Of a DNA stretch of 64,000 bases, positions 11,245-40,834 are shown one piece after another; the stretch's first letter is position 1, and each line of letters opens with the position of its first letter. Position numbers and translations under genes: made by a program. The notes under the pieces were generated by a model, which made no database searches, was not told the DNA's origin, and was given only the letters and a program-made list of their open reading frames with translations. Origin of the DNA: a virus; the IMG/VR virus record IMGVR_UViG_3300014059_000004; one strand, 5' to 3'.

Positions 11245-11302
11245 CGTAACTTCGGCGTCATCTCTTACCTATCAGCATGTAGCTGATCAAGGAGAGATTG
11301 AC

Positions 11303-11767: not shown

Positions 11768-11783
11768 TCAATACTTAGAGTAC

Positions 11784-13402: not shown

Positions 13403-13722
13403 GCGATCAACAGCTGCTGAAAGAGTACGTCTCAACTATCATTGCTGAGCTCAAGCTTGACACAAAGTTCATCGCCCGGCTAAAGAGGCACATGGCGCCG
13501 TCGCTAGCATCAAATGGTCGCACTGCTGCCGTTTTCTGGATCAGAAAGACAGAAGAGATCAATGATGAACCTCTGCCTGATAATATCAGACGTGAGATCA
13601 TCGATTATGCATCTTCAAAGTACGCGAAGCTATTCCGCAAGCACAACAATGATTTCAAGGAAACAGATTCAGCGCTTGTTGGGCTCATCAATGCTAAGTT
13701 TGGGTACTTGAGAGAAATTTGA
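13399..13722 (+). CDS. hypothetical protein
   Basis: ATGA coupling with protease stop; RBS ggaggg. Confidence 0.45.
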   Translation: MSDQQLLKEYVSTIIAELKLDTKFIARLKRHMAPSLASNGRTAAVFWIRKTEEINDEPLPDNIRREIIDYASSKYAKLFRKHNNDFKETDSALVGLINAKFGYLREI

Positions 13723-13729
13723 GAGAATA

Positions 13730-14104
13730 ATGAAAAAATTGGGCGCAGTATCTATCCTTCTCATTACGTTGATTATTTCTGGGTGCCCTCGTGGGTCCAA
13801 CGTAACACCTCAACCGCCAGTTGTGACCGATACGGGTGACTGCCAGGCTGCATGTGATCGTCTCAACAGCTTGGGTTGCGAAGAGGGCCGTGATATCGAC
13901 ATGAAGAGGTTGTGCGCTGACACTGGTGATTGTGACTTGGGTCATGGTTGCGTAGCGAACCACTGCGTGGCAACGTGCAGCGTGTTCTGCCGTGATACGC
14001 AAGCAGCAGGCGTTTGGCTCGCTCCGTCTTGCGTCAAGAACATAACGAGCTGCGATCAGATCGAATCATGTCCACTTCCAGAACCAAAGAAGTTAAGCTT
14101 CTGA
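13730..14104 (+). CDS. Cys-rich lipoprotein
   Basis: Signal peptide with lipobox LIISGC; 14 Cys. Confidence 0.55.
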   Translation: MKKLGAVSILLITLIISGCPRGSNVTPQPPVVTDTGDCQAACDRLNSLGCEEGRDIDMKRLCADTGDCDLGHGCVANHCVATCSVFCRDTQAAGVWLAPSCVKNITSCDQIESCPLPEPKKLSF

Positions 14105-14577
14105 AGCAGCTCATCCGTGAGATGTTGACAGATCCTCGACCGCCGATAACAAACGTCGAAGTGGGTGGTTCGTTGGCAAATGACGAAGAAGACGAGACGC
14201 TCGCAGCTTTGAATGCCCCGCGAGCTGCATGCGTTCTTGTTAGGAACCCAAACGGAAAGATCTTGGCAGTCTCTAGGAAAGATGATCCAAACGATTTTGG
14301 ATTGCCGGGTGGGAAAGTGGATCCTGGTGAGGTTGAGGTTGAAGCCGCTGCAAGAGAGCTTGAAGAAGAGACTGGTTACACTGCTGTAAATCTAACAAAA
14401 GTGTTCTCGCAGAAAGATGATGCTGGTTACTTCGTGACGACTTACTCTTGCTCAGTCATGGGTAACGTTGACACTGATGAATCTGGTGTGGTGAAGTGGG
14501 TTGAACCCGCTGTTCTCCTGCAAGGATCTTTCAGCGACTACAATCGAAAGCTGTTCAAGAGGGTGGGAATCCTATGA
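14068..14577 (+). CDS. Nudix hydrolase
   Basis: Nudix box GLPGGKVDPGEVEVEAAARELEEETG. Confidence 0.75.
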   Translation: MSTSRTKEVKLLKQLIREMLTDPRPPITNVEVGGSLANDEEDETLAALNAPRAACVLVRNPNGKILAVSRKDDPNDFGLPGGKVDPGEVEVEAAARELEEETGYTAVNLTKVFSQKDDAGYFVTTYSCSVMGNVDTDESGVVKWVEPAVLLQGSFSDYNRKLFKRVGIL

Positions 14578-15248
14578 AGCAACACTTGAAGTCGTACATA
14601 TCACACCTCATTGAAGCAGCAGTGGGCGGAGATCAAGCTATAGATGCTGGGCTAGCTCTTTATAGGGGACAGCGAGAAGGTAAGATTTACTACGTTCTTT
14701 ACGAGCCCAAGACTCTAGCGTCTGTCATGCAAGAACCGGGTTTCTGGAGCATGCGATTCTCCAAACCTCTCGATGAATTTATCTACGGTTTCATCGAAGC
14801 CATCCCACACTCTGACGAGTGCAATGACGCTATCGAAGTTCATCGATCTGCAGCGTCTAAAGGTTACGGTCCGCTCATGTACGATATTGTCATGAGCGAC
14901 GGCGACGGTGGCTTGATGCCAGACAGGGTATCGACAAATTCTTCTGCCGAGAAGTTGTGGCAATATTACTCTTCGAAGCGCAGCGACGTTGACAAGAAAC
15001 CGTTTGATGATCGTGATGATCCAAAGACACCAGAAGAATGCGATGACTGCGAGCTTGTGAAAGATCCAAACAAGGTATTGAACTACTCTTACGACGGGCC
15101 AGGACAAAGCGCGGCAAAATCAAGCTTGATCCAAAGGCATGGTGAAGTTGCTCAGCAGCTGGCAAAGCACGACGTGAAGCAATCATCGCTAGAAAATGTT
15201 CTGTACCAACTTGGTAACACGTACTTTGACAAGAAGTACGGCAGATGA
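14574..15248 (+). CDS. hypothetical protein
   Basis: ATGA coupling to Nudix stop; 224 aa. Confidence 0.5.
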   Translation: MKQHLKSYISHLIEAAVGGDQAIDAGLALYRGQREGKIYYVLYEPKTLASVMQEPGFWSMRFSKPLDEFIYGFIEAIPHSDECNDAIEVHRSAASKGYGPLMYDIVMSDGDGGLMPDRVSTNSSAEKLWQYYSSKRSDVDKKPFDDRDDPKTPEECDDCELVKDPNKVLNYSYDGPGQSAAKSSLIQRHGEVAQQLAKHDVKQSSLENVLYQLGNTYFDKKYGR

Positions 15249-15272
15249 ACTTGCTCAGCTAGACGAATTACA

Positions 15273-15719
15273 ATGTTGGCAAGTGGTATGATACCGCTAG
15301 CAAGTCCTCACAGTCTCATACAAGAATCTCTATGGCCCAATGAATGGCTCGTCCTCGTCAGCTGCATCATGCTGAACCGGACGAAGAGAACGCAGGTAGA
15401 AAAGATCCTACCTGAATTCATGTCTCGTTGGTCAACGCCTGAGAAGTACTTGGAGAGCTCCCCAGCTGAAGTCGCTGACTTGATCCGGTCGCTTGGATTC
15501 AAGAATCGTCGCGAAGCCACGATCAGGTCAATGACAAAGGCTTACGTGAGCAAATCTTGGTCAGATGCCCGGGAGCTGCCCGGTATCGGTGAGTACGGTT
15601 GGAGATCATGGAAGATGTTCTTCCAATGCGATGTGGGTAGCTACCGCCCGTCAGACGGTGCGTTGGGCATATACTACGACTGGATAAAGAAACATGAGCA
15701 ACGCAAAGAAGATCGCTGA
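15273..15719 (+). CDS. HhH-GPD DNA glycosylase, MBD4 catalytic-domain-like (mismatch T/U glycosylase family)
   Basis: LIQESLWPNEWLVLVSCIMLNRT...SPAEVADLIRSLGFKNRREATI...LPGIGEYGWRSWKMF...YYDWIKKHE parallels MBD4 glycosylase domain. Confidence 0.68.
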   Translation: MLASGMIPLASPHSLIQESLWPNEWLVLVSCIMLNRTKRTQVEKILPEFMSRWSTPEKYLESSPAEVADLIRSLGFKNRREATIRSMTKAYVSKSWSDARELPGIGEYGWRSWKMFFQCDVGSYRPSDGALGIYYDWIKKHEQRKEDR

Positions 15720-16023
15720 ACGCGTTAAAGAGAAAGCGCCGAAGGCTCCACGAAAGAAGAGAGTGAAGATCGATCCAAAGACAGTGCCTGCGATCGCTGA
15801 CGGCGTGCTGCTAGCACCAGTTGGTAGCAAGATCTTGGTGACTCGGTTGCGCCATGCTCGTCCTCACACTTCATCTTGCGAGATTCACAAGATCGATGAA
15901 GATGGAACGATCCACGCGTGGGACGAGACGCTCAACCAGTGGTTTCTCTTCAAGGCATCAGACAATGTCGATGTCAGGTTCTACAATGCCGCGGCTGCTG
16001 GTGCTGCTGCGCTGGAGGGATGA
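15694..16023 (+). CDS. small basic protein
   Basis: 109 aa ORF ending adjacent to next ATG. Confidence 0.45.
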   Translation: MSNAKKIAERVKEKAPKAPRKKRVKIDPKTVPAIADGVLLAPVGSKILVTRLRHARPHTSSCEIHKIDEDGTIHAWDETLNQWFLFKASDNVDVRFYNAAAAGAAALEG

Positions 16024-16839
16024 ATGCCCGAGGGTGTTGAAGTCACGTTGAGCGTCGAAGAGATCAACAACCTGTTCAGCGGTGAGATCATTCGTGCCGT
16101 TCAGCTGCACAACACTGGTCGTTACTCTTCGAAAGAGCCCGCTGGTTACCAAAATTTCGCTTCTGCTGTTCGTGATGGCTACATGATGGAAGCAGCTCGC
16201 GTAAAGGGAAAGTTCTCATGGTGGACGTTCAAGAAAGATCTTGAGCCCGATTGGTACATGATGTGCACCTACGGGATGACGGGAAAGTGGACGACGCGGC
16301 CCATGGCTGGGCACGCCGTCATGTCAATCATGTCTGATGAGTTGACAACGACGTTCATTGACCAGCGTCGATTCGGGACGTTGAGCTTCACGTCTTCTGC
16401 TGAAGCGCTAGCTTCAAAGCTGAAGTCAATAGGTCCTGACATGCTTAACGCACCACCGGATGATGAAGAATTCATCGAGCGCATGATGTTCAAGAGCAAT
16501 CGAACGATCGCTGAAGCTCTGATGGACCAAAGCTGCGTCTCTGGCGTCGGCAATTACTTGAAGTGTGAATCTTTGTATGCTGCGAAGATATCACCGCATC
16601 GTCCAGTTTCGTCGCTAACCCACGAAGACTTTGCTGACCTACGATCAGCTATCATAATGATGATGAACCTATCGTACGAGCTCGGTGGGGCTTACTCAGT
16701 GGGTCCGGATGGCACATCATGGATATCAGACAGATTTTCAGTGTACAATCAAGTCACTGATCCTCATGGATTCCCAGTAGAAAAAAAAGCGACCGCTGAC
16801 GGTCGAACAACTTACTGGTGTCCAAAAAGACAGAAGTAG
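16024..16839 (+). CDS. Fpg/Nei family DNA glycosylase / AP lyase
   Basis: N-terminal MPEGVEV (catalytic Pro2-Glu3), DQRRFG, H2TH region LMDQSCVSGVGNYLKCESLYAAKISP, C-terminal YWCPKRQ zinc-finger-like. Confidence 0.8.
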   Translation: MPEGVEVTLSVEEINNLFSGEIIRAVQLHNTGRYSSKEPAGYQNFASAVRDGYMMEAARVKGKFSWWTFKKDLEPDWYMMCTYGMTGKWTTRPMAGHAVMSIMSDELTTTFIDQRRFGTLSFTSSAEALASKLKSIGPDMLNAPPDDEEFIERMMFKSNRTIAEALMDQSCVSGVGNYLKCESLYAAKISPHRPVSSLTHEDFADLRSAIIMMMNLSYELGGAYSVGPDGTSWISDRFSVYNQVTDPHGFPVEKKATADGRTTYWCPKRQK

Positions 16840-16842
16840 AAG

Positions 16843-17175
16843 ATGGAAAAAGTAGCACCGCGCTATTCTCCTGACATGGTCAGAGAGAACGTTCAGCGCA
16901 ACATTGAAAGACTATTCGCTGGGTACAGCGCTGGAAGACCGGCGAACTGGTCATGTGATGTCAGAACTAAAGAAGTGATAACGACTGCTAACTGGCTCGG
17001 TGAAGAGCTCCAGCGCATTGGCCTAGACGATGCTGGAGCCAAAGTTCAGAACGCGCAGTTCAACAGAAGGGTTCGTTCAGAAGAAGATTTGTGGTCAATT
17101 GCGTCCCAAATTTTGAACGATGCGCTGGATGGCAACGTTGACAGGAACAGGAGACCTCATCGACGATGGAGCTAA
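16843..17175 (+). CDS. hypothetical protein
   Basis: 110 aa ORF. Confidence 0.45.
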   Translation: MEKVAPRYSPDMVRENVQRNIERLFAGYSAGRPANWSCDVRTKEVITTANWLGEELQRIGLDDAGAKVQNAQFNRRVRSEEDLWSIASQILNDALDGNVDRNRRPHRRWS

Positions 17176-17414
17176 GCCCAGTAAGCGAATTCGTTGCACG
17201 TTTTACGTTGAAGGTGACGCAATTGATAGAAACAGAATTGTGTTACGTTTCTTGGGATACGTTTGTTCAGAACGACAGCGGCACACGTGGTGTAATTCTG
17301 AAAAAGAACACGATGTGCATCCTCACGCACTTGGGACCAGATTACGCAAAAGTCATCGTTCCTTCGTTGGGTGATTCTTTCTTCGTGCTTCGAACCTTCA
17401 TAAGGCACCTATGA
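17166..17414 (+). CDS. hypothetical small protein
   Basis: Coupled at both ends (overlaps upstream stop; TGA overlaps 17411 ATG). Confidence 0.4.
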   Translation: MELSPVSEFVARFTLKVTQLIETELCYVSWDTFVQNDSGTRGVILKKNTMCILTHLGPDYAKVIVPSLGDSFFVLRTFIRHL

Positions 17415-18328
17415 TGAGACGTAAGAACAGCAACATGCTGCTGCGCATTGCGCAAGCAGATGCATTGGCGTTGGGCATCGAATTCATCGATAAAGAGAAG
17501 CATGGCGAGCTTTTTGAAGCTGTTGGCTCTATGAATCGTTACGTTCAGCACCCAACGTACGAGCTGATGAAACCGGGCTGGTACTCAGATGATACCCAGC
17601 AGAGCATTGCGATCGCAGAGTTGCTGTGCACCAGCGAATCACCCAGCGCCGTTGATTTTGTTGGCAAATTTTGGGAAGTTCATGCAAGAGATCCACGCGA
17701 TGGTTACAGCAGAGCGATGCAAGAGCTACTAGAGTCTTCGAAGAACGGTGATGAGCTGAAGCTGAAGCTTCAACCAAATTCCGACAAGAACGGTGCAGCG
17801 ATGCGCTCGGTTCCCATAGGCGTCATCAAAGATCCAGATGCCGTCGTTCGCTACGCTGGGTTGCAAGCAGCTACGACGCATGCCACGTGGGGTGGCATCA
17901 ACTCCTCGATCGCTGTTGCATTGATGTCGCATTATGCCCTCTACGATCGTCGAGATTTTAATCACATGCTAGGATGGTGTAGCCGTTACCTAGATTCTTT
18001 TGATTATTTCTCGAAGCCCTGGGAGGGCCCTGTGAAGGCTCGACCGAAGCAGCCGGGGGATCGTGGCCTCGGTTGGAACACGGCTTGGGCTGTTCATACG
18101 TTGCTTGTCGAAGAAAAATCGCTAGCGGGTATCATGTCTCGAGTTGCGAGCTGGGGTGGTGACACAGACTCTGTCGCTGCGATCGCATGGGGCATTGCAT
18201 CTGCACGCTACTCTGACGAAGTGTTGCCGAGCTTCCTTGAAACCGACCTTGAAGCTAGCCGTGATGGTAACTACGGTGTACAGTTCCTCAAGGATCTTGG
18301 TGAGCAGCTGATGTGCAAGTACGCTTGA
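17411..18328 (+). CDS. ADP-ribosylglycohydrolase (ARH/DraG family)
   Basis: ADALALG, YSDDTQ, NGAAMR, TTHATWGG, SWGGDTDSVAAIAWGIA motifs. Confidence 0.75.
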   Translation: MMRRKNSNMLLRIAQADALALGIEFIDKEKHGELFEAVGSMNRYVQHPTYELMKPGWYSDDTQQSIAIAELLCTSESPSAVDFVGKFWEVHARDPRDGYSRAMQELLESSKNGDELKLKLQPNSDKNGAAMRSVPIGVIKDPDAVVRYAGLQAATTHATWGGINSSIAVALMSHYALYDRRDFNHMLGWCSRYLDSFDYFSKPWEGPVKARPKQPGDRGLGWNTAWAVHTLLVEEKSLAGIMSRVASWGGDTDSVAAIAWGIASARYSDEVLPSFLETDLEASRDGNYGVQFLKDLGEQLMCKYA

Positions 18329-18332
18329 AGCT

Positions 18333-20225
18333 GTGGCTTGTAAAATAGCTGATCTGCAGGGTACATTTCAACTTATGGCACCAAGCACCAAAGCCAAGAA
18401 ATCTGTCATCGATAGCATCACGACGTTCCACAGCACTTTGAAAGTGAAGGTGTCAGATCTAAGGAACATCCAAGAAGAGCACGGCGACATGTGTTGCACG
18501 TTCATCGACGATGTTGTTCATGAGTATGACAATTGCGGCGAGGCAAAAGAGTGCAGCCAGTGCAAGGCGATGAACGATAATGACGCTCGTTTCTGCAAGC
18601 GGTGCGCTTACCCACAAGCAGGTTACGAGTTCATCAGCATCCCAAAGATCTATTGGTCAGATGTTGAAAACACTGCAAAGAATTCTTTTGAGAACGTAGT
18701 CATCAAGAAGCTTGTACCCCTGACAACGGGTCGAGCATTCTTCATCATGACGTACGTCAATCCAGATTATGAGCACGTTACAAAAGTCGTGGGGGCGGCG
18801 ATCGTAGACGGGAAGTACGAAGAGTGCGACGTGACTTTCACGTCGAAAGCAAACAAGCGAGTTCGTTACAACGTTGAACTTTTAGCACCACGAGACAAAA
18901 TGACTGAAAAGAACAAGACGCTAGTGACGCAAGTTAGAGATTTCTTCAACGTGAGCAAGGTGAAGCAAGTCATCCACGTTGGAACTGACATCTTTCAAGC
19001 ATCAACGCCTTTCTTGGAAGATCCCACCTGGTGGAACGGTTTGAAGAGCAGCTTCTCGATCTCCAAAGTGCTCATCGAGCAGTTTGAAGTGTGGGGAGAT
19101 GATTTCTTCTCTAGCGATGAGTGGTCTGCACCTTACAGCAGGGACTTCAACTCTACGATCATCAAGGTCGTCAGTCGCTATCCTTACGAGAACATTCGCA
19201 CCAACGATGATGCTACGATCATTCGCATGATCGATGCCGATGGCATCAAGATGGGTTACACGATGAACACCCGTCTCAACGTTCCTGGCAACATCTACGT
19301 TGATACTGCGAAGCTGAAAGAGGCTCAAGCTCTCATCAAGAAGATCTTGTGGGAATCGTTGAAAGATTCAAACCTCGTCATGAGGCAGAACAAGCGCGTT
19401 GGAACGTCTGACGATGATTCTAGGATCGTGTTTGAATCTGACGATGCCTTTCATCCCCTTGCATCTGAGAGAGCAACTTCGTACGCAGCATACTTGAAGC
19501 GGTGCATCGACGCTGACGTGCCGCGGTCAGTGATGCTGTACGGTCCGCCGGGGACTGGAAAGTCTACGATGGCTCGAACCATCGTGGAGAACCTTGGCAT
19601 GCGCAGCTTCCGAATTCGCGTTGAGGATGTTGCTAACCTTGAGAGCTCTACGCTCTTTGAGGCTATCACGATCTTTGAACCCGATGCAATCATCTTGGAT
19701 GACTTTGACAGAGCGCATGCGCAGGCGCAGCTGCTCGAGACGCTCGAGTTCTTCCAGAGGCACGTGAAGCTTGTCATCGCAACTGTCAACAATCGTAACA
19801 GTCTTGATGAGGCAATCCTTCGCCCTGGTCGCTTCGATGAGATGTTGTTTGTGAAGACAATGGACGGTGATGTTGTCAGGTCGATCCTTGGAACTTACGC
19901 TGATGAGGCTTACGAGCTCGTCAAGAATTGGCCCATCGCCTTCATCCAAGAGTACGTGAAGAGGCGTCGGTTCATGTCTGCCGCTGAAGCATCTGAGTCT
20001 ACGATCGAGCTCTCGAAGCGTGTTGCTCGCCTCGAGAAGTACGAGGATGATCCAGCGCCTGAAGTGACAACACTTGATGATCACTCTATGAAGACTGATC
20101 CGCCCGATAACGGTCCTATCACTGAAGATCTTGAAGGTGAAGAGAACGAAGAAGGAGGCGGCCCCGAGGGCGACGCCCCTTTTTGTCCACCGCTAGAAAC
20201 CTTAGTGATCTTACTACGAAGCTAG
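18333..20225 (+). CDS. AAA+ ATPase with N-terminal Cys-cluster (zinc-ribbon-like) region
   Basis: Walker A LYGPPGTGKST, Walker B AIILDDFD, SRH ILRPGRFDE; CSQCKAMNDNDARFCKRC; acidic C-terminus. Confidence 0.75.
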   Translation: MACKIADLQGTFQLMAPSTKAKKSVIDSITTFHSTLKVKVSDLRNIQEEHGDMCCTFIDDVVHEYDNCGEAKECSQCKAMNDNDARFCKRCAYPQAGYEFISIPKIYWSDVENTAKNSFENVVIKKLVPLTTGRAFFIMTYVNPDYEHVTKVVGAAIVDGKYEECDVTFTSKANKRVRYNVELLAPRDKMTEKNKTLVTQVRDFFNVSKVKQVIHVGTDIFQASTPFLEDPTWWNGLKSSFSISKVLIEQFEVWGDDFFSSDEWSAPYSRDFNSTIIKVVSRYPYENIRTNDDATIIRMIDADGIKMGYTMNTRLNVPGNIYVDTAKLKEAQALIKKILWESLKDSNLVMRQNKRVGTSDDDSRIVFESDDAFHPLASERATSYAAYLKRCIDADVPRSVMLYGPPGTGKSTMARTIVENLGMRSFRIRVEDVANLESSTLFEAITIFEPDAIILDDFDRAHAQAQLLETLEFFQRHVKLVIATVNNRNSLDEAILRPGRFDEMLFVKTMDGDVVRSILGTYADEAYELVKNWPIAFIQEYVKRRRFMSAAEASESTIELSKRVARLEKYEDDPAPEVTTLDDHSMKTDPPDNGPITEDLEGEENEEGGGPEGDAPFCPPLETLVILLRS

Positions 20226-20419
20226 AATGGGTTCAGTCTGAACAAAAAGGAGAATTTAAGCCCGCGCCCTTGAAGCCTGTTACGCCCGCGCAGCTGAAGA
20301 AATTTTACGCTCAACTGCGTCTACAGTATCCTGGGAAGATTGGTATTGCAAAGGTCAGTGAGGCTAGAGAGTTCAACAAGATGCTGAAAAAGCTAGTGTT
20401 TGGCAACAAGAAGAAGTGA
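20183..20419 (+). CDS. possible small protein
   Basis: 78 aa ORF overlapping 3' end of AAA+ gene; weak. Confidence 0.25.
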   Translation: MSTARNLSDLTTKLEWVQSEQKGEFKPAPLKPVTPAQLKKFYAQLRLQYPGKIGIAKVSEAREFNKMLKKLVFGNKKK

Positions 20420-20452
20420 AACTTTGATCTGCACAGATGTAAGATTGAATCA

Positions 20453-21385
20453 ATGCTAGGCGTTTGCTGCCATTGGCTTAAGTCTCACGTGCAACCACGC
20501 ACGGGTAACACTGTTCTCGTCAATGAGATGTCTGAACGTACGTTGCAGCTGGGAAGGTTCCAGCGCGGCGCGTACACTGACGAGCAGATCCGTGTTACGT
20601 ACATCAGCAACATCAAGAACCTCGCTGCGATGATACCCAAGGTGTCAGCAGCGGGGATTCGTCTATTTCGAATTTCGTCATCTCTGTTCCCGCTTGCTGA
20701 TAAAGTGCCTCGCAAGACGTGGGACAATCCTGCGGTTCGTGCAGAGTTGCAGCGTGCTGGCACAGCAGCAATCTCACGTGGTATACGGTTGACAACGCAC
20801 CCAGGTCAGTTCTGCGTCATATCGTCCGATTCTGACCGCGTTGTTGAGAATTCTTTCAACGAGTTGTCACTTCATGGCTGGATCTTTGATGCCATGGGTC
20901 TCCCGCGGTCGCCGCACGCAGCAATCAACATTCACGGTGGTAAGGGTGACCGTCATTCACGGCTCGTTGATGGCATTCGTTCGTTGCCACAGTCTGTTCG
21001 GTCTAGGCTTACGCTTGAGAACGATGAGTCAGCGTACTCTGTCGTCGACTTGCTACCCGTCTACAAGGAAACTGGCGTGCCGATCGTGTGGGATTCGCAC
21101 CATCATACGTTCAACGACGGCGAGCTAACTGCTGACGAAGCGTTCAATGTAACACAGTTGACATGGCCGAAAGGTGTGATACCTCTTCAGCACATATCAA
21201 ACACTGAGCCTTCATTGTTGAACGGTTCATTTATTGACAGGAGGAAGCATAGCGACTACATCCATCATGTTCCTGATTGTCAGCTCCGTGGGCTTAGGGA
21301 TGATACAATCGCCGTAGAAGTCGAAGCTAAGCACAAGAATCTTAGCGTTGACCTCATGGCATCGATGTTCAACATACCTAAATGA
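20453..21385 (+). CDS. uvdE: UV damage endonuclease UvdE
   Basis: RISSSLFP, THPGQF, INIHGGKGDR, LTLENDESAYSV, PIVWDSHHH motifs of UvdE/TIM-barrel AP endonuclease family. Confidence 0.8.
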   Translation: MLGVCCHWLKSHVQPRTGNTVLVNEMSERTLQLGRFQRGAYTDEQIRVTYISNIKNLAAMIPKVSAAGIRLFRISSSLFPLADKVPRKTWDNPAVRAELQRAGTAAISRGIRLTTHPGQFCVISSDSDRVVENSFNELSLHGWIFDAMGLPRSPHAAINIHGGKGDRHSRLVDGIRSLPQSVRSRLTLENDESAYSVVDLLPVYKETGVPIVWDSHHHTFNDGELTADEAFNVTQLTWPKGVIPLQHISNTEPSLLNGSFIDRRKHSDYIHHVPDCQLRGLRDDTIAVEVEAKHKNLSVDLMASMFNIPK

Positions 21386-21410: not shown

Positions 21411-21734
21411 ATGAGAATTAAGATGGCAACTAGAACACCTTCTAAGGGATCACTCACGGACGGTACTGAATTCCAGCTGCACAAATCTCAATTGATGTTG
21501 TTCAGCGGGATCATGAGCAAGGTGATTGATTTCACTGAACACAAGCTTCTGAAGTGCATTGATTCGGTTGATGACGTGCAGCAGAAAGTAGTGTTGAAAG
21601 ATCTCCTTGACAAGTACAGAAAAGGCACAGTTGCGGTATCATGGCGAAAAGGCCGACCGGTTCAACTACCAGTGACTAAGGAAAAGTTACTTCTGAACAC
21701 TGCGTCAGATTGTGGTAAAATGAAGGTACCATGA
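21411..21734 (+). CDS. hypothetical protein upstream of chaperonin
   Basis: 107 aa; no GroES mobile-loop signature. Confidence 0.45.
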   Translation: MRIKMATRTPSKGSLTDGTEFQLHKSQLMLFSGIMSKVIDFTEHKLLKCIDSVDDVQQKVVLKDLLDKYRKGTVAVSWRKGRPVQLPVTKEKLLLNTASDCGKMKVP

Positions 21735-23356
21735 TCAATGACGTCGAGACACACAACATTACGAAAGTTTTCTTCAAGAACGACGCGAGGCGTAGACTCT
21801 ATCGAGGAATAGAGTGCACAGCTGAAAGCGTTGCATGCACGCTGGGACCGAAAAGAAAGACAGTCGTCATCCAGAAGAAAGATGGACCGCCAGTTGTCAC
21901 CAAGGACGGCGTTACGGTTTCAAAGTCAGTCAGGCCCAAAGATCCAGTTGAAAGGATGGGAGCAGATCTGATCAGGGAGGCAGCATCACAGACGAACGAG
22001 GTTGCTGGTGATGGCACAACGACAGCAACGGTGTTGACTTACGCTCTAGTCAAGGGTGGGTTGAAGTACCTTGAAGCAGGGTTTGAAGCAAAAGAGCTGT
22101 GCGAAGGGATGGAACGAGCTCGAGTGCTAGTCGATGAATACCTTGTGAAATCTGCTAAGAAGCTGACGACCAAAGAAGAGATCGCTCAGGTCGGCACGAT
22201 CTCTGCGAACGGCGACGGTCGCATCGGCAACCTCATCGCTGATGCGATGGAGAAGGTCGGATCTGACGGCATCATCACCGTTGAGGATGCAAAAGGAATG
22301 GAGACAACGCTTGAAACTGTCGAAGGTATGCAGTTCGAGCGTGGTTACTTGAGCCCTTACTTCGTCACCAACCAAGAACGAATGAATGTCACTTACAATG
22401 ATGCTCGCGTTCTTGTCACTGACAAGAAACTATCATCGCTGAGCGAGCTGATTCCTCTGCTTGAGAAAGTCGTAAGATCCCAGTCAAAGCTGCTCATCAT
22501 TGCCGAAGATGTTGATGGTGAAGCGATGCAAGGACTGGTCGTCAACCGCGTCAATGCGAACCTAGCAGTCGTTGCTGTCAAAGCACCGGGTTACGGAAAA
22601 CACAAGGATGAACTGCTTCACGATATCGCAGTTCTTACTGGTACGACAGTTGTGTCGCCAGCTGCTGGATTGAAGATCGAGAAGCTTGAGCTCAACGATC
22701 TTGGTACTGTCAAGAAGGTCGTCGTTGATGCTAAGTCGACAACGTTGGTCGGAGCTGGCGCATCTCGGCCCGCTGTTGACGCTCACGTTGCAAATCTTAG
22801 GACGCAGCTCGAAGACGTGACGCTAACAACTGATGAAGTGACAAAGTTGAAGGTGCGCATCGCGCGGCTTGCTTCTGGCGTTGCTGTCATCAAGGTCGGA
22901 GGCTCAACTGAGCTTGAGATGATTGAGAAGAAGTATCGCATCGAAGATGCTCTGAACGCAACGCGAGCAGCGGTCGCCGAGGGCATCGTAGCTGGCGGCG
23001 GAACTGCATTCTTCAATGCCACGTGGATGGTTGACGTGCCTCAAGATGATGTTGGTGCAAAGCTTGTCATGACATCAATCCTAGCACCCTTGCAGACGAT
23101 CGTTTCGAATGCCGGAAAGTCACATGAAGTCGTCATCAACAATCTACGAAGTGGAATGATCAAGTCAGACATCCAGTTTCGTGGTTACGACGCTGCAAGC
23201 GACAGAGAAGTTGACATGTTTGCTCATGGCATCATCGATCCAGTGAAAGTTTCCAGGACGGCTTTGAAGAACGCAGTTTCAGTAGCAATCACATTTTTGT
23301 CTATCGGCGCAGTGATAGTTGAAGACACCAAGGATAGTGAAAAAGATGATCAATGA
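21731..23356 (+). CDS. groL: GroEL/Hsp60-type chaperonin
   Basis: TLGPKRKTVV, AGDGTTTATVL, equatorial/apical signature regions, GGGTAF near C-term; ATGA coupling. Confidence 0.9.
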   Translation: MINDVETHNITKVFFKNDARRRLYRGIECTAESVACTLGPKRKTVVIQKKDGPPVVTKDGVTVSKSVRPKDPVERMGADLIREAASQTNEVAGDGTTTATVLTYALVKGGLKYLEAGFEAKELCEGMERARVLVDEYLVKSAKKLTTKEEIAQVGTISANGDGRIGNLIADAMEKVGSDGIITVEDAKGMETTLETVEGMQFERGYLSPYFVTNQERMNVTYNDARVLVTDKKLSSLSELIPLLEKVVRSQSKLLIIAEDVDGEAMQGLVVNRVNANLAVVAVKAPGYGKHKDELLHDIAVLTGTTVVSPAAGLKIEKLELNDLGTVKKVVVDAKSTTLVGAGASRPAVDAHVANLRTQLEDVTLTTDEVTKLKVRIARLASGVAVIKVGGSTELEMIEKKYRIEDALNATRAAVAEGIVAGGGTAFFNATWMVDVPQDDVGAKLVMTSILAPLQTIVSNAGKSHEVVINNLRSGMIKSDIQFRGYDAASDREVDMFAHGIIDPVKVSRTALKNAVSVAITFLSIGAVIVEDTKDSEKDDQ

Positions 23357-23747: not shown

Positions 23748-23945
23748 ATGAAATTCCAAGTTGGTGATCTTGTCACGATTGCAAACAACAACGGATACGT
23801 TTCAACTAAAGACTCTGGTCTCATCATCTCTGTAAGAGCTGCGAACCAGAATAAGTCTTACCAGTACGAGAGCGTGTACTACGTGTGGCTGAACAAGGGC
23901 TCTATGATGGGTCCCTTGTTCAGCCACGAACTTCTAGGCTTCTAG
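23748..23945 (+). CDS. array-family paralog (plus strand outlier)
   Basis: N-term MKFQVGDLV. Confidence 0.5.
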   Translation: MKFQVGDLVTIANNNGYVSTKDSGLIISVRAANQNKSYQYESVYYVWLNKGSMMGPLFSHELLGF

Positions 23946-24173
23946 AAGCTTTATCTGCGATTCATGAGCAGTTGTTAGTCGACCAAGGCTTGGAAAGTAT
24001 ACAACGATCGTCCCGTACAGAGTGTAGTCTGGGATTTCGTTGCTTCCAACATCTACTTGAACGACGATGCCAATGTCTTTTGGGCTCAACACGTAGTACT
24101 TGTTAGGGTCAGAGCAATTGAGGGCCGTGACAACCCTTGCTCTCTGCGTCTCTACCAAGTCGCCCGGTTTCAT
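23934..24173 (-). CDS. array paralog
   Basis: N-term MKPGDLV. Confidence 0.55.
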   Translation of the reverse strand: MKPGDLVETQRARVVTALNCSDPNKYYVLSPKDIGIVVQVDVGSNEIPDYTLYGTIVVYFPSLGRLTTAHESQIKLLEA

Positions 24174-24176
24174 CTT

Positions 24177-24431
24177 TTACAACGATAGCCAATTGCTGTC
24201 CCAGCTAACTGTGTCGCACCCGTAATCGTACAAACGACCGTTGATCAGCAACGACACGTGAGTTCTTTGACCCTTGCTTTGAGATCTTACGATCACAGCA
24301 ATCATGCCGCTCTTGATTGCTATGGATGATGGTCTTCTGATGAGCGGCGCTGCCCATCCCAAGATCAGCTTCCTTGCCATCACTAGATCACCAGGCTTAG
24401 GCGTATTCAAATTTTCTCCAAGATTTTCCAC
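24177..24431 (-). CDS. array paralog
   Basis: PKPGDLV near N-term. Confidence 0.5.
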   Translation of the reverse strand: MENLGENLNTPKPGDLVMARKLILGWAAPLIRRPSSIAIKSGMIAVIVRSQSKGQRTHVSLLINGRLYDYGCDTVSWDSNWLSL

Positions 24432-24633
24432 GCTCAGATTCCCAAAAGAGAGCAGTCTGCAAGGTGCCGTCAGAGCATAGTACTACAATCTCGTGCGCTC
24501 GTACATTTTCACCGAACGAAGTCACGATCTTGACGATCGATCCAAACCGCGGTTTGATTGCACCCTTTCCAAACCATGCGACTAGATCACCCACATCCAG
24601 AGTTTTTGGTGTTGATGTGAATCTTTGAAGCAT
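24397..24633 (-). CDS. array paralog (start trimmed to internal ATG)
   Basis: MLQRFTSTPKTLDVGDLV. Confidence 0.45.
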   Translation of the reverse strand: MLQRFTSTPKTLDVGDLVAWFGKGAIKPRFGSIVKIVTSFGENVRAHEIVVLCSDGTLQTALFWESERGKSWRKFEYA

Positions 24634-24814
24634 GTCCACACTCGGGGCAGCTGAACGTGATCCAAAAACCGCCCCTGACAACGCGCTCTGGGTGCTTTGA
24701 GCCACATTCACCGCAGCAACCTTCAGCTTCAGCGCGTAGCTTGCGTATCCAAGGATGTTCATCTGATGATGTTGCTTCGACGAGCACCGTGAACATTCTA
24801 GCGATATTCAGCAT
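24587..24814 (-). CDS. possible zinc-ribbon small protein
   Basis: CCGECGSKH...(17)...SCPECGHASK; overlaps untrimmed neighbour, uncertain. Confidence 0.3.
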   Translation of the reverse strand: MLNIARMFTVLVEATSSDEHPWIRKLRAEAEGCCGECGSKHPERVVRGGFWITFSCPECGHASKIHINTKNSGCG

Positions 24815-24826
24815 TGCCCGACAAGG

Positions 24827-25027
24827 TTAAGTATCGCTGAGAATCTCAACTTTGTCAATGATCCACCAAGTAGCAACTTCGAACGTTTGGTGCTCATAGA
24901 ACAAACCAGTTTTATCGTCAGTGTGCCACAGGATTGTCACAAGAGCACCATCTGGTATGACGAAACCTTTGAACGTGCGATACAGCTGGTTGAGCTTGAC
25001 AAGATCGCCAGGCCGTATCGTGAGCAT
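24827..25027 (-). CDS. array paralog
   Basis: N-term MLTIRPGDLV. Confidence 0.55.
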   Translation of the reverse strand: MLTIRPGDLVKLNQLYRTFKGFVIPDGALVTILWHTDDKTGLFYEHQTFEVATWWIIDKVEILSDT

Positions 25028-25074
25028 AGATCATTGTACAATGAACTTGGTACGAAGTACAGTATCATTTACAG

Positions 25075-25455
25075 ATGGAATTTGACTTGGGTGAGGGAGC
25101 TCACCATGTGCACGTTGGTGGTGTTAATGCAGAGATGGAGTTGCCGGCAAGCTTTAACGTGCTACCGCGTGAAGATCAAGTGCAAGCTCAGCTAGCAGCT
25201 GATTTTTTCCAACGCATCGTTGCTGCAGAGCGCGAGGGTTCTAAGGTTACGCTAGTCACAGCGATCGGTGAGATCTTTGTTCTTCGTGCTGGTGATGCAG
25301 GTCTGCCAGATGGTGATGTGCACCCTGGTGATTTCGGTAAGAAGATCACTGTCGGTGACTTTGAAGCATTGTCAAGTTGGATTCTTGCGTTGAGCACCAA
25401 GATAATCAGCGTTGTTGACTTATTTAGTAGATGCGAATCAACGTCGAAAGAGTAA
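25075..25455 (+). CDS. possible hypothetical protein
   Basis: 126 aa ORF, no motif; weak. Confidence 0.3.
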   Translation: MEFDLGEGAHHVHVGGVNAEMELPASFNVLPREDQVQAQLAADFFQRIVAAEREGSKVTLVTAIGEIFVLRAGDAGLPDGDVHPGDFGKKITVGDFEALSSWILALSTKIISVVDLFSRCESTSKE

Positions 25456-25667
25456 GGCAGATCGTTCGTGAAGAGATCGAAAGAATGATGAATCGATCTG
25501 CTGGGATGTTCGGCGGTGGAGGTATAAGCAGGTCAGACAATGGTGTCGTGCCTCCACCTCCAGGATTGGGCAGTCCGAGCGAAGAGATAGAGAATGAAAA
25601 ACAAGAACAAGATGAACCAAGCCAGTCAGTCGTCCGAGCAAACAACAGAGCGGGAAGACGCGATTGA
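25431..25667 (+). CDS. small protein, paralog of 29098..29499 (shared RVRQIVxEEI motif)
   Basis: MRINVERVRQIVREEIER... vs VKITIARVRQIVLEEILRE. Confidence 0.45.
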   Translation: MRINVERVRQIVREEIERMMNRSAGMFGGGGISRSDNGVVPPPPGLGSPSEEIENEKQEQDEPSQSVVRANNRAGRRD

Positions 25668-25866
25668 GCTTCAAGGCGTGGTGGATGAAGCTCTACCTGG
25701 GACGCTGTTTAGCGTCATCGTAGAAGGCGGCAATAAAGTTCTAGCCACGCTGTCTGGCAAGCTTCGCATCAACAGGATCAGGTTGATCCCAGGTGATCGT
25801 GTTACAGTGGCGGTTTCGCCCTATGACTGTTCTCGAGGGCGCGTATTGTGGCGACTCTTAACATAG
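25594..25866 (+). CDS. infA: translation initiation factor IF-1 homolog
   Basis: EDAIELQGVVDEALPGTLFSVIVEGGNKVLATLSGKLRINRIRLIPGDRVTVAVSPYDCSRGRVLWR aligns over full length with bacterial IF-1 (S1-like OB fold). Confidence 0.75.
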   Translation: MKNKNKMNQASQSSEQTTEREDAIELQGVVDEALPGTLFSVIVEGGNKVLATLSGKLRINRIRLIPGDRVTVAVSPYDCSRGRVLWRLLT

Positions 25867-25877: not shown

Positions 25878-26737
25878 TTACGCAACGTGCTCGACGTGCT
25901 GCATAACTTCAGCATGTCGGGCTTTCAGCGTTCCAGCGATCAGCTTTGCTTCGCCGTTCCATTCGGCAGCCAGATCGTTCATTCCATGCGACTTGAGCTC
26001 TTCAGCAACTTCCTTGCTTGCGGCGCTGAGCGTTGATGCTATGCTGCTCCATGGAACTGATGCAAAAGTTTTCCCAGCTTTCACCAAGTCTGCGTGCTGG
26101 TAGACACGCCCGGCGCCGCCGAACGATGGATCTAGCATCGTCTTCAGCTCACCCGGTTTATCGCCGAACTTTCCGCCTTTCCTACCACCTTGAGCTCTGA
26201 ACGTCAGAGACCCGCCTGGGTCGATGCGCGTTGCCTTTCCTTTGTCTGCGATGACGTTGCCCGATCCGGTGCCGATGACGTCCCAGTTTGCAAGGAAGAT
26301 GTCAACGTACACGCCAGCTGACAGCATGCTAGCCAATTCTTTAGCTGGGATCGTTTCAAGTGCCATCTTGCCTGCAACGGCTGACGTAGCCAGTCCAACC
26401 TTGCCACCTTTGCGATCGTACACGAGCTCAACGTTTGGGATGTCGACACCTGGGTACAGCGAGTAAACTTTGTACGCAAGGTACTCAACTAGGATCTGCA
26501 AGCTTGGGTTGACGCCATCAAACAACGACTCGTCTGAGAACTTCAAGTAGTACTTGTTGCCACCGATGCTGCACGTCTTCATGACGTGAGTAGAACCTGC
26601 TGCGAAGCAGACGTCACCTACGTCTTCAATGTCAACTTCGTTGAGGACTGCTACCCTGATGAGCTCCTTCAGCTCGTTTATTCTTATAAGCATAGGTGGT
26701 TTTCCTTGGTTCTTTTTCTTTGAATTAACTGTGGGCA
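25878..26737 (-). CDS. hypothetical protein (about 286 aa)
   Basis: Start trimmed to MPTVNSKK just downstream of upstream stop; Gly-rich C-term. Confidence 0.5.
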
Positions 26738-26769
26738 TCCTGTGACCACCAGCGGTTAAATATAGGGTC

Positions 26770-36030: not shown

Positions 36031-36260
36031 GCCGGCTTCAAGAAGTCAAGGTTGCACAGTATCGTGTGACCCATGGGTGCATAGAAGTATAGTGCACCGC
36101 GGCCCTGAGCATAGGGATCGACATCTTCCATGTCCATGATCTGGATGATCAGTAGCAATGTCCCAGGTAGCGTGATGTAGTGCGTTGATCGATCTTCGAT
36201 GACGCGAAATGCTAGCCTCGTTGTCGTGGTGACTAAGTCACCCGGAGAAAAATTGTTCAT
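36027..36260 (-). CDS. array paralog
   Basis: MNNFSPGDLV. Confidence 0.55.
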   Translation of the reverse strand: MNNFSPGDLVTTTTRLAFRVIEDRSTHYITLPGTLLLIIQIMDMEDVDPYAQGRGALYFYAPMGHTILCNLDFLKPA

Positions 36261-36327
36261 GAAGCTCCGCTTGTCATAGTTTCATACGCCCAGCAAGCAT
36301 CACCACGATAGTTTGTAGCAATAGATT

Positions 36328-36558
36328 TCATCGCAGAGGTTCAAGGAAGATTGATCTAACCCATCCCACCTGATGGTTGTTGGCAACGTATATGCAGCAA
36401 TCTACTTTATCATCACCGTAGCCTTGAGTTCCTACAACGATGCAGATGGAACCTTTGGCTTTGGTGCAACGTTTGTACTCCCAATCGGGTTCTTTCAAAG
36501 AACGTGATCGTAGAGCAACATCACACTGGAATATCATCATATCGCCGGTAGAGACCAT
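36328..36558 (-). CDS. array paralog
   Basis: MVSTGDMMI. Confidence 0.5.
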   Translation of the reverse strand: MVSTGDMMIFQCDVALRSRSLKEPDWEYKRCTKAKGSICIVVGTQGYGDDKVDCCIYVANNHQVGWVRSIFLEPLR

Positions 36559-36806
36559 CAGGCATCCTCAAGCAAACCAGAACGTAGCCAACCTAGGTGC
36601 ACTCCCGTAGCAGTGTTGGCGAGAACGTAGCAATCTACTTCATAGTTGAAGCCGCCCAACGGATTGACTCCAAGCAGCAACAGGTAATGAAGTTGACTTC
36701 GTCCCACAGTAGCACCATACTCCCATCGAACGTCATTGATCGGTGCAGATCGTAGCGTGATCGCATGGCAATTGATCTTCAGAAGAGAACCGATCTTGAG
36801 ATTCAT
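36558..36806 (-). CDS. array paralog
   Basis: MNLKIGSLL. Confidence 0.55.
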   Translation of the reverse strand: MNLKIGSLLKINCHAITLRSAPINDVRWEYGATVGRSQLHYLLLLGVNPLGGFNYEVDCYVLANTATGVHLGWLRSGLLEDA

Positions 36807-37045
36807 GGCAATTGCAGCTCTTCTTCAAACAGCAAGCATCGCTGCCCGCTTGGGTTGATCAACTCTGTGCACTTTGAACCCATGATGATCCGCGAGTCGA
36901 TGACCACGTGGAAACCATTTTGGATGAGACCGCAGTAACAGTTACTTCCACCGCGCTCCAGGTAATTCTTGTTTCCAAACTGCATCTCGGGACGTGGGAC
37001 AACAAGCTCGCCGACAGAGAACTTGGCTACGTATTTTTCTCGCAT
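36803..37045 (-). CDS. array paralog
   Basis: KFSVGELV. Confidence 0.5.
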   Translation of the reverse strand: MREKYVAKFSVGELVVPRPEMQFGNKNYLERGGSNCYCGLIQNGFHVVIDSRIIMGSKCTELINPSGQRCLLFEEELQLP

Positions 37046-37239
37046 GATTCTTTCACAACGTTAACGTGGATAACCCAGGTTCGAACGATGATGCCAGAGG
37101 GTGTCATCAGCAGGCAAGTTTCTTCGTTAATCTTCAAAGACACCACGACATGGATGCCTTCTTCAAGCGGACGAAGCACCAACCCAAAGCCGTAGTAGTT
37201 GCGGCTGCTTATTGTCACAAGATCACCTGGATGATACAT
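37027..37239 (-). CDS. array paralog
   Basis: MYHPGDLV. Confidence 0.55.
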   Translation of the reverse strand: MYHPGDLVTISSRNYYGFGLVLRPLEEGIHVVVSLKINEETCLLMTPSGIIVRTWVIHVNVVKESCEKNT

Positions 37240-37478
37240 TAGGACAACTTCATCATGCAGTCAGAGTACGCCCAATACACTTCTCCTGATGGTGCTAGAA
37301 CTGCTAGAAAGTGCTTGTTTGGATTTCTCACCGCTGTTGGTTCAATTCCGATGATCACATGATATCCACGCTTTATGGGTCGATGATAGAACCATTGATC
37401 ATTTTTCTGCGATCTGTGATAGCTCCAAGCATCCTCGAAGCCTTCCGCAGGGACGAACGCAATGTCTCCTATTTTCAC
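37239..37478 (-). CDS. array paralog
   Basis: MKIGDIAFV. Confidence 0.55.
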   Translation of the reverse strand: MKIGDIAFVPAEGFEDAWSYHRSQKNDQWFYHRPIKRGYHVIIGIEPTAVRNPNKHFLAVLAPSGEVYWAYSDCMMKLS

Positions 37479-37705
37479 TCAATCACCGTCATCTGCATTG
37501 TTTGCAAGTACAGTATGCGCCCTTGCGGGGTAAGAATTCCGACTCTGTCATACTCGCTTGTGCAAGGAGGTGCGTGGACGACGATGCACAGGCCAGCGTT
37601 ATTTGTGAGTATCCTTGTGATCGCATCTCCCCGGAAGCTTTCGTAGAAGAAAAGGTTGCCGTGAGGCCTAACAAGCATCCCAACGGACTTCTGGTATTTT
37701 GACAT
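37475..37705 (-). CDS. array paralog (trimmed)
   Basis: MSKYQKSVGMLV. Confidence 0.45.
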   Translation of the reverse strand: MSKYQKSVGMLVRPHGNLFFYESFRGDAITRILTNNAGLCIVVHAPPCTSEYDRVGILTPQGRILYLQTMQMTVIE

Positions 37706-37706
37706 C

Positions 37707-37913
37707 TTACGCCAATCTTTCAAGACGTTGCACAAGCTCCACATGATCAACGTGGCACAACGCAATTTTACCGCATCGCAGCAGCAACCTAACATGAGTG
37801 TTTCCCATCATGCCGAGCACGACCAGCGAGCCCGCGAACTTTTTCTCACCGAACGTGCGTATGTAAGGTTCCATGTTGACAAGGTCACCAACCTTAAACC
37901 TGCCCGGGGTCAT
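37707..37913 (-). CDS. array paralog
   Basis: MTPGRFKVGDLV. Confidence 0.55.
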   Translation of the reverse strand: MTPGRFKVGDLVNMEPYIRTFGEKKFAGSLVVLGMMGNTHVRLLLRCGKIALCHVDHVELVQRLERLA

Positions 37914-38176
37914 AGCATCACATTTCCGCGTAAGTCAACAATGATCTTTATCTGAGATGAAAATAGGAACTTAACTTGACTGTCAGCAGTGAGCAAGCCG
38001 ATCACGTGAAGATCCGGGCACAACATTGCATGAGTGCAGCCCGGTGAATATATGACAGTGCACAAGCTGGCCCAGTTCGTGAGCTCATTTCCCACTTTCT
38101 GTGCTTCTATATCATCAAAAAAGAAGATGTCGTCGATAGGCTTAACAATCGCTCCGGGCTTAACAACGGGTTTCAT
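37910..38176 (-). CDS. array paralog
   Basis: MKPVVKPGAIV. Confidence 0.5.
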   Translation of the reverse strand: MKPVVKPGAIVKPIDDIFFFDDIEAQKVGNELTNWASLCTVIYSPGCTHAMLCPDLHVIGLLTADSQVKFLFSSQIKIIVDLRGNVML

Positions 38177-38427
38177 CTTAGCTGCTCAATCTCGTCATCG
38201 TAAAGTTGAACGATCCTTCCGTCGCTGTTGTTGAGCAGCATTACAACGCTGAGATTGTCAGGATGATAACCCAAGAACACGTAACCAGATGATACGTCAG
38301 AACTTGAAATTTCATCTCCACTCGCTGTGAAGTGATTGTAACCATATCCTTCATCGACTACAACGTACATGGCACTGCCCGGTGCGAAGTCAGTGACAAC
38401 AAGATCGCCTGCCCGAAATGTCTTCAT
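38173..38427 (-). CDS. array paralog (trimmed)
   Basis: MKTFRAGDLV. Confidence 0.5.
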   Translation of the reverse strand: MKTFRAGDLVVTDFAPGSAMYVVVDEGYGYNHFTASGDEISSSDVSSGYVFLGYHPDNLSVVMLLNNSDGRIVQLYDDEIEQLR

Positions 38428-40809: not shown

Positions 40810-40834
40810 GCCCCTTGAAGCTCGCCTTCCCACA

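Follow-up and report, generated by a model that had tools for sequence, protein, structure and literature searches.

A bacterial-type translation initiation factor IF-1 with a basic N-terminal tail, linked to GroEL in a virus-only subgroup

The window analysed here, a stretch of 64,000 nucleotides from IMG/VR virus record IMGVR_UViG_3300014059_000004, contains a plus-strand open reading frame (ORF) at 25594..25866 whose 90-amino acid (aa) product is a genuine bacterial-type translation initiation factor IF-1. Comparison with related loci showed that this protein belongs to a coherent virus-only subgroup, in which IF-1 bears a basic N-terminal tail and is encoded a short distance from GroEL. 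To judge from the sequence, it is probable, though well short of certain, that the gene provides a functional, virus-adapted IF-1 that would bind the A site of the 30S subunit and sustain initiation on the phage's own coupled messages, which are poor in Shine-Dalgarno (SD) sites.

The reading frame extends from ATG 25594 to the stop TAG at 25864-25866, with 90 codons in between. An in-frame TAG at 25588-25590, two codons before the ATG, makes 25594 the earliest possible start, and this start is further supported by the N-terminus MKNKNK, seen again in relatives. A preliminary description made from the DNA alone had aligned the protein with bacterial IF-1 over the whole S1-like OB domain, and family profiles, solved chains and predicted fold all bear this out. 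In the NCBIfam equivalog TIGR00008 (infA), residues 20-88 matched profile positions 1-69 of 69 with 83.8 bits and an expectation value (E) of 5.9e-24, against a curated cut-off of 61.15 bits, and the Pfam family PF01176 was covered over positions 1-64 of 64 with 67.5 bits (cut-off 30.2 bits). Twelve solved IF-1 chains were aligned by phmmer without a gap (best E 3.7e-21, about 50-56% identity). The archaeal and eukaryotic IF1A models TIGR00523 and NF003082 gave only 20.6-21.3 bits, below their cut-offs of 102.9-108. An AlphaFold (AF2) model built from 21 sequences, which replaced a discarded 8-sequence model with a predicted local distance difference test score (pLDDT) of 49.9, reached pLDDT values of about 88-93 over residues 21-90, with 46-52 over the 20 residues before them. 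The S1-like OB barrel (codons 20-88, 25651..25857, plus strand), which carries the 30S-contact residues and was recognized in the model and by Foldseek, consists of b1 (24-33), b2 (38-43), b3 (48-53), a short helix (55-59), b4 (69-74) and b5 (81-88). The modelled protein stops 2-3 residues past the last barrel strand and is without the C-terminal helical subdomain of IF1A. Foldseek superposed the model on S. pneumoniae IF-1 (4QL5) with a template-modelling (TM) score of 0.94 normalised to the target and a root-mean-square deviation (rmsd) of 1.0 A, and on 30S-bound E. coli IF1 (9FCO) with an rmsd of 0.9 A; archaeal and eukaryotic IF1A were the next-ranked fold matches after bacterial IF-1.

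Residues that contact the ribosome were evaluated from a gapless alignment in which the window residue equals the C. difficile IF1 residue + 17, using the contacts described for C. difficile IF1 modelled on the T. thermophilus 30S complex (PMC10913371; see also the review of Gualerzi and Pon, PMC4611024). Contacts with 30S rRNA and protein S12 are kept at K56, R58, R63, Y77, R81, R83 and W86 of the window protein (C. difficile K39, R41, R46, Y60, R64, R66 and W69, respectively), and the essential C-terminal arginine, Arg69 in E. coli, is R87. Hence the basic contacts for the 530 loop, A1492/A1493, helix 44 and S12 (K56, R58, R63, R81, R83 and R87) are all present. Across relatives the contact residues are mostly invariant and the others nearly so. 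Bacterial IF-1 of known structure (1HR0, 1AH9, 6C00, 4QL5 and 9FCO) has an OB core of the same length without insertions or deletions, the same five-strand barrel with its b3-b4 helix, and the same basic contacts, but it has no basic tail of 17-19 aa. A role as a cold-shock-like RNA chaperone was also considered; there was no match to the cold-shock domain and the ribosome-contact residues are intact, and this role is kept only as a minor possibility.

The relationship of the window protein to other IF-1 proteins was examined at the level of loci. In IMG/VR, a pattern scan returned 489 viral contigs with a gene for an IF-1 relative, and the locus comparison comprised the best 80 of the IMG/VR matches together with earlier loci; 35 loci, including the window, make up the subgroup. 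Every one of them has GroEL upstream of IF-1, at a distance of 1.8-10 kb, and these loci often share with the window an AAA ATPase, UvdE, an ADP-ribosylglycohydrolase and a major-vault-protein (MVP)-like gene. The subgroup signature consists of the basic N-terminal extension, the motifs E(A/S)LPGT(L/W)F and LATLSGK, a threonine at the position of T52, and GroEL within 10 kb, and the window has every part of it. When the OB core alone was used for neighbour-joining, 26 of the 30 unique subgroup sequences formed a pure clade; mean identity of the core was 63% inside the subgroup and 51-53% to all others. Relatives at 45-69% identity hold IF-1 in the same module on viral contigs of up to 369 kb, and the gene has been retained long-term in the viral lineage. 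The cellular side was covered by a scan of 185,579 species-representative genomes for the subgroup motif, which returned only 14 IF-1 genes, all with at most 59% identity. Almost all of these cellular proteins align only from about residue 20 and are hence tail-less; rpmJ lies directly downstream in most of the 14 loci, and GroEL is nearby in none.

Within the window, GroEL (Cpn60) is encoded at 21731..23356 on the plus strand (phrog_5725, E 1.4e-143; PF00118), and the AAA ATPase (PF00004) at 18333..20225 on the same strand; homologues of the latter with 34-68% identity are found upstream of GroEL in many subgroup loci. At least 23 metagenome contigs, identical in gene order, encode the exact window IF-1 protein, and an 81.6-kb IMG/VR viral contig carries the IF-1 region at 97% identity. 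Two observations on this module may be added. The stop codon of a 107-aa plus-strand gene (21411-21734) overlaps the GroEL start as ATGA, and an equivalent of 90-103 aa precedes GroEL in relatives; the gene is a candidate for a divergent co-chaperonin, with no Cpn10 match on record. In locus L011 (10001-10510 of IMGVR_UViG_3300033121_002167, 97% identical) a change before the stop (…RVLWRSLSDIST…) lets the IF-1 frame run on to 169 aa, which reflects either natural variation or a fault in the assembly; in contigs from Logan and ENA the protein is 90 aa long.

The N-terminal tail is the feature by which the subgroup departs most visibly from ordinary bacterial IF-1, where it is not present. In the window it is the disordered, Lys/Asn-rich segment MKNKNKMNQASQSSEQTTE (codons 1-19, 25594..25650, plus strand; pLDDT 46-52). 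The preliminary description had called it a 20-aa acidic/polar extension, and this has to be corrected: the extension has 17-19 residues, is basic and polar with three lysines (K2, K4 and K6), and carries a net charge of +2 over its first 17 residues. An N-terminal extension was found in 35 of 35 GroEL-linked loci, with a median length of 18 aa, a net charge of +4 and a composition of 22% Lys, 13% Asn and 8% Arg, and the net charge is positive in 34 of the 35. Among other viral IF-1 proteins, 31 of 41 have no extension, and plain, tail-less forms occur in Lak-B1, LR756511 and the gut phage record MT835508. The tail is poorly conserved in sequence, composition alone being kept. Close to the decoding centre, such a basic disordered tail probably makes additional electrostatic contacts with rRNA or mRNA.

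The codons of the tail are shared with another gene. The upstream 78-aa gene (25431..25667, plus strand) overlaps them in another frame with its last 74 nt, and 29 of the 35 subgroup loci have an upstream ORF that is in the corresponding frame relative to IF-1 and runs 14-173 nt into its reading frame before stopping, so that the tail codons are usually dual-coding. The 78-aa protein is conserved in the divergent loci L014 and L015 (LTxRQLRxxIxEEV...PPxGLG...EPSQ..RV..RN) and gave tblastn matches at the same relative position in many subgroup loci; it has no Pfam or PHROG family, and on sequence grounds the gene is real. A frameshift fusion of this gene with IF-1 was considered and found unnecessary, as IF-1 has a conserved ATG and MKNKNK, and relatives without the upstream ORF keep the tail. 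The overlap bears directly on a simpler explanation of the phage gene, in which it is a plain dosage back-up that keeps the IF-1 level up when host infA is shut off, and in which the tail is neutral and is tolerated through the overlap. Conservation of the OB core and contact residues would fit this explanation, as would the dual coding and the preservation of tail composition rather than sequence. However, the tail keeps its basic character at loci where the overlapping ORF is missing (L012, L112 and L114-L116) and is thus not a mere by-product of the overlap; its charge is positive almost throughout the subgroup while other phage IF-1 lineages manage without a tail; and the subgroup-specific substitutions described below sit at the ribosome interface. 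Taken together, a pure back-up function with a neutral tail appears rather unlikely.

The proposed role of a virus-adapted factor would proceed as follows. After infection, IF-1 would be made from a small plus-strand operon and would occupy the A site of the host 30S subunit like cellular IF-1, against helix 44, the 530 loop and protein S12, so supplementing or replacing host IF-1 and keeping initiation capacity for phage messages high. These messages have few SD sites and a great many cistrons that are tightly stacked or overlap, and a few of the first cistrons are perhaps leaderless; published work has shown that IF1 stimulates the corresponding modes of initiation, namely reinitiation, 70S scanning and leaderless starts. 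Contacts made by the tail would put the phage factor at an advantage relative to host IF-1, or would stabilise weak start sites. The translation signals of the genome were assessed with crude gene calls: about 24-27% of gene starts in the window have an SD core ahead of them, as against 7-9% of random positions, and 23 same-strand junctions in the window are 4-nt ATGA overlaps. In a genome of SD-poor, stacked cistrons the supply of IF1 should matter. IF1 has been reported to be strongly stimulatory for 70S-scanning initiation, and it also stimulates leaderless translation in vitro (PMC9031893), while translational coupling drops sharply in vivo with IF1 depleted to 25% (PMC12548453). That IF1 tolerates an N-terminal extension is suggested by the use of N-terminally His-tagged IF1 in ribosome-complex cryo-EM and kinetic work (PMC13345285). 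SD-preceded starts had a median of 20% in genomes with tailed IF-1 and 35% in genomes with untailed viral IF-1 (Mann-Whitney p 9e-6), a comparison in which the loci are related, so that the effective sample is small, and the gene calls are crude.

The small sample in that comparison is one of several points that weigh against the proposed role. IF1 acts in all initiation modes, and extra IF1 gives no obvious preference for phage mRNAs. Scans with PHROG and Pfam found no capsid, portal or terminase in the large ORFs of the window, in about 20 kb to its left or in the large ORFs of related contigs. Finally, three subgroup-specific changes lie at the ribosome interface: His35 of bacterial IF-1 is replaced by T52, a position that has threonine in 97% of the subgroup and Tyr or His outside it; Met42 is replaced by I59; and the b1-b2 loop, which inserts into the groove of helix 44, has the sequence GTL (G36-T37-L38) where cellular IF-1 has NAM. 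With these three changes, altered or even inhibitory 30S binding is conceivable. In its extreme form this would make the protein a host shut-off factor, the tailed IF-1 binding the A site too tightly, or staying there at subunit joining, and so blocking host initiation. The extra basic residues together with T52 and G36-T37-L38 could raise affinity, and IF1 has to dissociate before the inter-subunit bridges form (PMC13345285). Yet the phage itself depends on these ribosomes to make a very large proteome, linkage to GroEL suggests a module for production and folding and not one for shut-off, and no precedent was found in the literature examined; a shut-off function is therefore very improbable, and a factor that supports initiation remains the preferred interpretation.

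A more specific role, also raised in the preliminary description, is that the phage IF-1 shifts the IF1/IF2/IF3 balance toward leaderless phage transcripts. The circumstantial part of this idea stood. A -10-like element, TACAGTATCAT (25058..25068, plus strand), is a candidate promoter 6 nt before the ATG at 25075 that begins the IF-1 unit. The motif TACARTA occurs at 10 sites in the window. At five of these (4654, 25058, 31334 on the minus strand, 53833 on the minus strand, and 63901) the ATG of a long ORF follows after 5-10 nt, and one of the five ORFs is the first gene of the IF-1 unit. Its extended form TACARTANNNT was counted at 6 sites with 1.33 expected, and overall enrichment of TACA(A/G)TA amounted to 5-6 sites with 1.1-1.3 expected. 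The motif suggests a phage promoter that would give leaderless or very short-leader transcripts, and stimulation of leaderless translation by IF1, noted above, is in the same direction. The selectivity that the idea demands did not hold up. There are only about 5 candidate leaderless starts in 64 kb, and the large majority of the approximately 140 ORFs are internal cistrons of long arrays and so cannot be leaderless; IF-1 itself is a third cistron whose start lies inside the preceding gene. As IF1 is required or stimulatory for canonical and 70S-scanning initiation as well, no preference for leaderless messages follows, and the known factor that discriminates leaderless mRNA is IF3, not IF1. 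Moreover, the motif was not seen upstream of the operon in the divergent relatives L012, L014 and L015, and a scan for sigma-70 -35/-10 promoters and terminators around IF-1 gave no excess over shuffled sequences. A leaderless bias is thus improbable, and general support of initiation on SD-poor, coupled messages is the reading retained here.

The operon in which IF-1 lies is short. IF-1 is the third gene of a plus-strand unit (25075-25455, 25431-25667 and 25594-25866) between minus-strand genes. The first gene (25075..25455, plus strand) encodes a putative protein of 126 aa that is called on all exact-match contigs; it has positional homologues of 124-147 aa in L012, L014 and L015 and tblastn matches of about 30% in L095 and L097, with no PHROG match. 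The 3' boundary of the unit is a convergent minus-strand gene (25878..26849; on metagenome contigs 286 aa, 25878-26738) that lies 11 nt past the IF-1 stop and has homologues 3' of IF-1 in L091, L093 and L015; no terminator-like hairpin was found in the gap between the two. Several further observations concern this region. Upstream of 25075, the 47-nt divergent intergenic region contains a 14-nt perfect palindrome, TCATTGTACAATGA (25031-25044), possibly an operator or a bidirectional promoter element. The 78-aa protein shares a helix-like N-terminal motif, (K/R)I(T/N)xxRVRQIVxEEI, and a Gly/Pro-rich stretch with the plus-strand ORF 29035-29499 (35.6% over 59 aa, E 0.003), and the same motif is found more loosely at the N-terminus of the convergent 286-aa gene (MLIRINELKELIR). 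In the 298-kb relative L098 (IMGVR_UViG_3300009181_000033), a 1,702-aa collagen-repeat protein is encoded directly 3' of IF-1 (10463-15568). It was tried as a tail fibre and rejected; it has many tail-fibre PHROG matches (best E 1.8e-123), but these are driven by low-complexity repeats.

The wider content of the window makes it very probable that the DNA is part of a large uncultivated phage. About 95% of it is covered by ORFs, and the recognisable genes include a GIY-YIG/NUMOD3 homing endonuclease, an RNA ligase, a 5'-3' exonuclease, a papain-like protease, HhH-GPD and Fpg glycosylases, UvdE, an ADP-ribosylglycohydrolase, AAA and MoxR-like ATPases, GroEL, a KaiC/RecA-like ATPase, one tRNA-Leu and the MVP-like gene; just left of the window are a second GIY-YIG gene, thymidylate synthase, thymidine kinase, superoxide dismutase and an epimerase. 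Relatives of IF-1 and of the MoxR-like ATPase co-occur with similar spacing on IMG/VR contigs of 160, 298 and 309 kb. A cellular or plasmid-like element with a housekeeping infA would be the alternative, and the lack of capsid, portal, terminase or any unambiguous tail gene in 64 kb and flanks speaks for it, as does the dependence of the tail-fibre matches in L098 on collagen repeats. Against this stand the presence in IMG/VR of the window contig and its 35 relatives, up to 369 kb long; the two GIY-YIG homing endonucleases, thymidylate synthase, thymidine kinase, RNA ligase and many PHROG matches; the high ORF coverage with dozens of ORFan mini-genes; the occurrence of a tailed IF-1/GroEL pair in the isolated Bacteroides phage DAC19; and an MVP-like gene held in common only with curated phage genomes of 462-735 kb. 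The immediate context of the gene points the same way. Bacterial IF-1 genes usually lie at the infA-rpmJ end of a ribosomal protein cluster, and most of the cellular motif matches have rpmJ directly downstream, whereas the window IF-1 is surrounded by phage ORFans, the convergent gene and GroEL, with neither rpmJ nor ribosomal-protein genes. A non-phage origin is accordingly very unlikely.

Assignment of this phage to a described lineage was less productive. Megablast of 12 kb around IF-1 against 50,697 phage records gave no match; UvdE and the MoxR-like ATPase reach no more than 32% identity with their homologues in cultured phages, none of which is close; and an exact-protein look-up of three right-hand window genes returned no record. 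The 735-kb phage LR756501 shares only GroEL and the MVP-like gene with the window, and in the approximately 70 kb of DAC19 examined only GroEL and IF-1 are held in common. With so few shared genes, the window is assigned to neither the LR756501 nor the DAC19 lineage.

Other parts of the window deserve brief description. A plus-strand repair or damage-response cluster (15273-21385) contains HhH-GPD and Fpg/Nei glycosylases, the ADP-ribosylglycohydrolase, the AAA ATPase and the UV-damage endonuclease UvdE, and a DNA polymerase beta thumb fragment lies at 2750-3307. The MVP-like gene (31335-34079, minus strand, 914 aa) has MVP_shoulder (E 2e-30), Vault repeat and SPFH/Band 7 domains and may be the most unusual gene of the window. 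It is 57-77% identical in related jumbo contigs; among the 50,697 phage records only three curated huge-phage genomes (462-735 kb) match it, at about 45% identity, and no paper on vault-like proteins in phages was found in a literature search. Antisense to it, in a GC-richer segment (0.55-0.57), is an 842-aa open frame (31599-34127, plus strand) that is most likely a non-coding shadow ORF; its weak tblastn match to LR756501 falls antisense to the MVP homologue there. Two minus-strand regions, 34095-49830 and 23934-25027, consist of dozens of back-to-back genes of 60-125 aa with many ATGA overlaps, the run from 34 to 50 kb being an unbroken series of dozens of genes of about 75 aa with no ORF of 150 aa or more for 16 kb. 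These arrays are a very diverged paralogous family, with an N-terminal M-[KR]-x-G-D-L-[VL] and a C-terminal [IV]-[IL]-L-L-P-[DSN]-G but no PHROG match, and the family includes the four genes that immediately precede the IF-1 operon.

That a phage should encode IF-1 is not in itself new. IF1 in huge phages was reported in 2020 by Al-Shayeb et al. (PMC7162821), who proposed that these phages redirect initiation with IF1, IF3, S1 and S21; the core genes of Jug phages include one for IF-1/1A (PMC12880540); and IF-1 is annotated in the isolated Sinorhizobium phage Phosso. The rarity of such genes, stated in the preliminary description, was confirmed numerically, with 36 of 50,697 phage records and the 489 IMG/VR contigs mentioned above. 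The count from the record collection is inflated by bacterial-looking contigs labelled as phage. Several of the 36 records resemble mis-deposited bacterial contigs, and the suspect records that match IF-1 or GroEL include Listeria phage LM 4-11-1 fragments of 1.5-4 kb, Acinetobacter phage MD-2021a, Enterococcus phage Efs 1-1-1, Staphylococcus phage SA 1306 Kay contigs and two Salmonella enterica whole-genome shotgun contigs. Huge, Lak and Jug phages resemble the window in having a copy of a host initiation factor in a very large genome, with a proposed role in redirecting host translation. However, the copies in Lak-B1 and LR756511 are plain 72-aa IF-1 with no tail and no GroEL in the flanks examined, are at most 51% identical to the window protein, and fall outside the subgroup. 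Closer in organisation are the Bacteroides phages DAC19 (DAC19_4), DAC16-23 and SJC03, in which an IF-1 homologue with a long basic tail lies three small genes 3' of GroEL; these proteins, annotated 'hypothetical protein', are 42-45% identical to the window IF-1, and the core tree places them apart from the main clade. The searchable literature yielded no paper on a tailed IF-1 of phages or on a module of GroEL and IF-1. The new details are modest, namely a virus-only subgroup with a conserved basic tail, the interface substitutions, the invariable GroEL linkage, and a start codon buried in the upstream gene.

Basic N-terminal extensions are known from two other proteins of initiation. Phage S21 has one, for which a comparable idea has been put forward (PMC7162821), and it is a different protein with a different 30S binding site. 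The N-terminal tail of yeast eIF1A, which is basic and unstructured, touches rRNA, the anticodon and mRNA positions +4 to +6 and promotes the use of weak start sites (PMC5756025). eIF1A and aIF1A have a homologous OB domain that occupies the same ribosomal site, and a tail of similar Lys/Asn/Arg-rich composition to that of the phage protein; the aIF-1A and eIF-1A profiles align to the window IF-1 from residue 6-9. They differ in having a C-terminal helical domain or tail that the window IF-1 has not, and the core of the latter is clearly bacterial-type, scoring 21 bits against the IF1A cut-offs of 103-108. The tails are alike in composition only, and the likeness is probably convergent. A bolder interpretation was nevertheless considered, in which the tail is eIF1A-like and reaches from the A site to the mRNA and the P-site codon-anticodon helix, making tailed IF-1 a functionally distinct factor that stabilises SD-less or reinitiation starts, with the GroEL pairing as a dedicated module. 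This is a tentative proposal, with perhaps a minority chance of being correct.

In summary, copies of translation factors are a main argument that very large phages reprogram the host ribosome, and the subgroup described here offers, in SD-poor genomes, three conserved and testable peculiarities: the basic tail, the changes at the S12/helix-44 interface, and the obligatory GroEL linkage. The isolated relative, Bacteroides phage DAC19, provides an experimental entry point in a cultured system. If the bolder interpretation is true, a jumbo-phage lineage and the DAC-type Bacteroides phages could favour their own SD-poor, densely coupled messages, the constant pairing with GroEL would mark a module to make and fold phage proteins, and a tail that shifts start-site choice would be a parallel in the bacterial world to the tail of eIF1A. 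Otherwise, the gene would be one more auxiliary translation gene of a jumbo phage.

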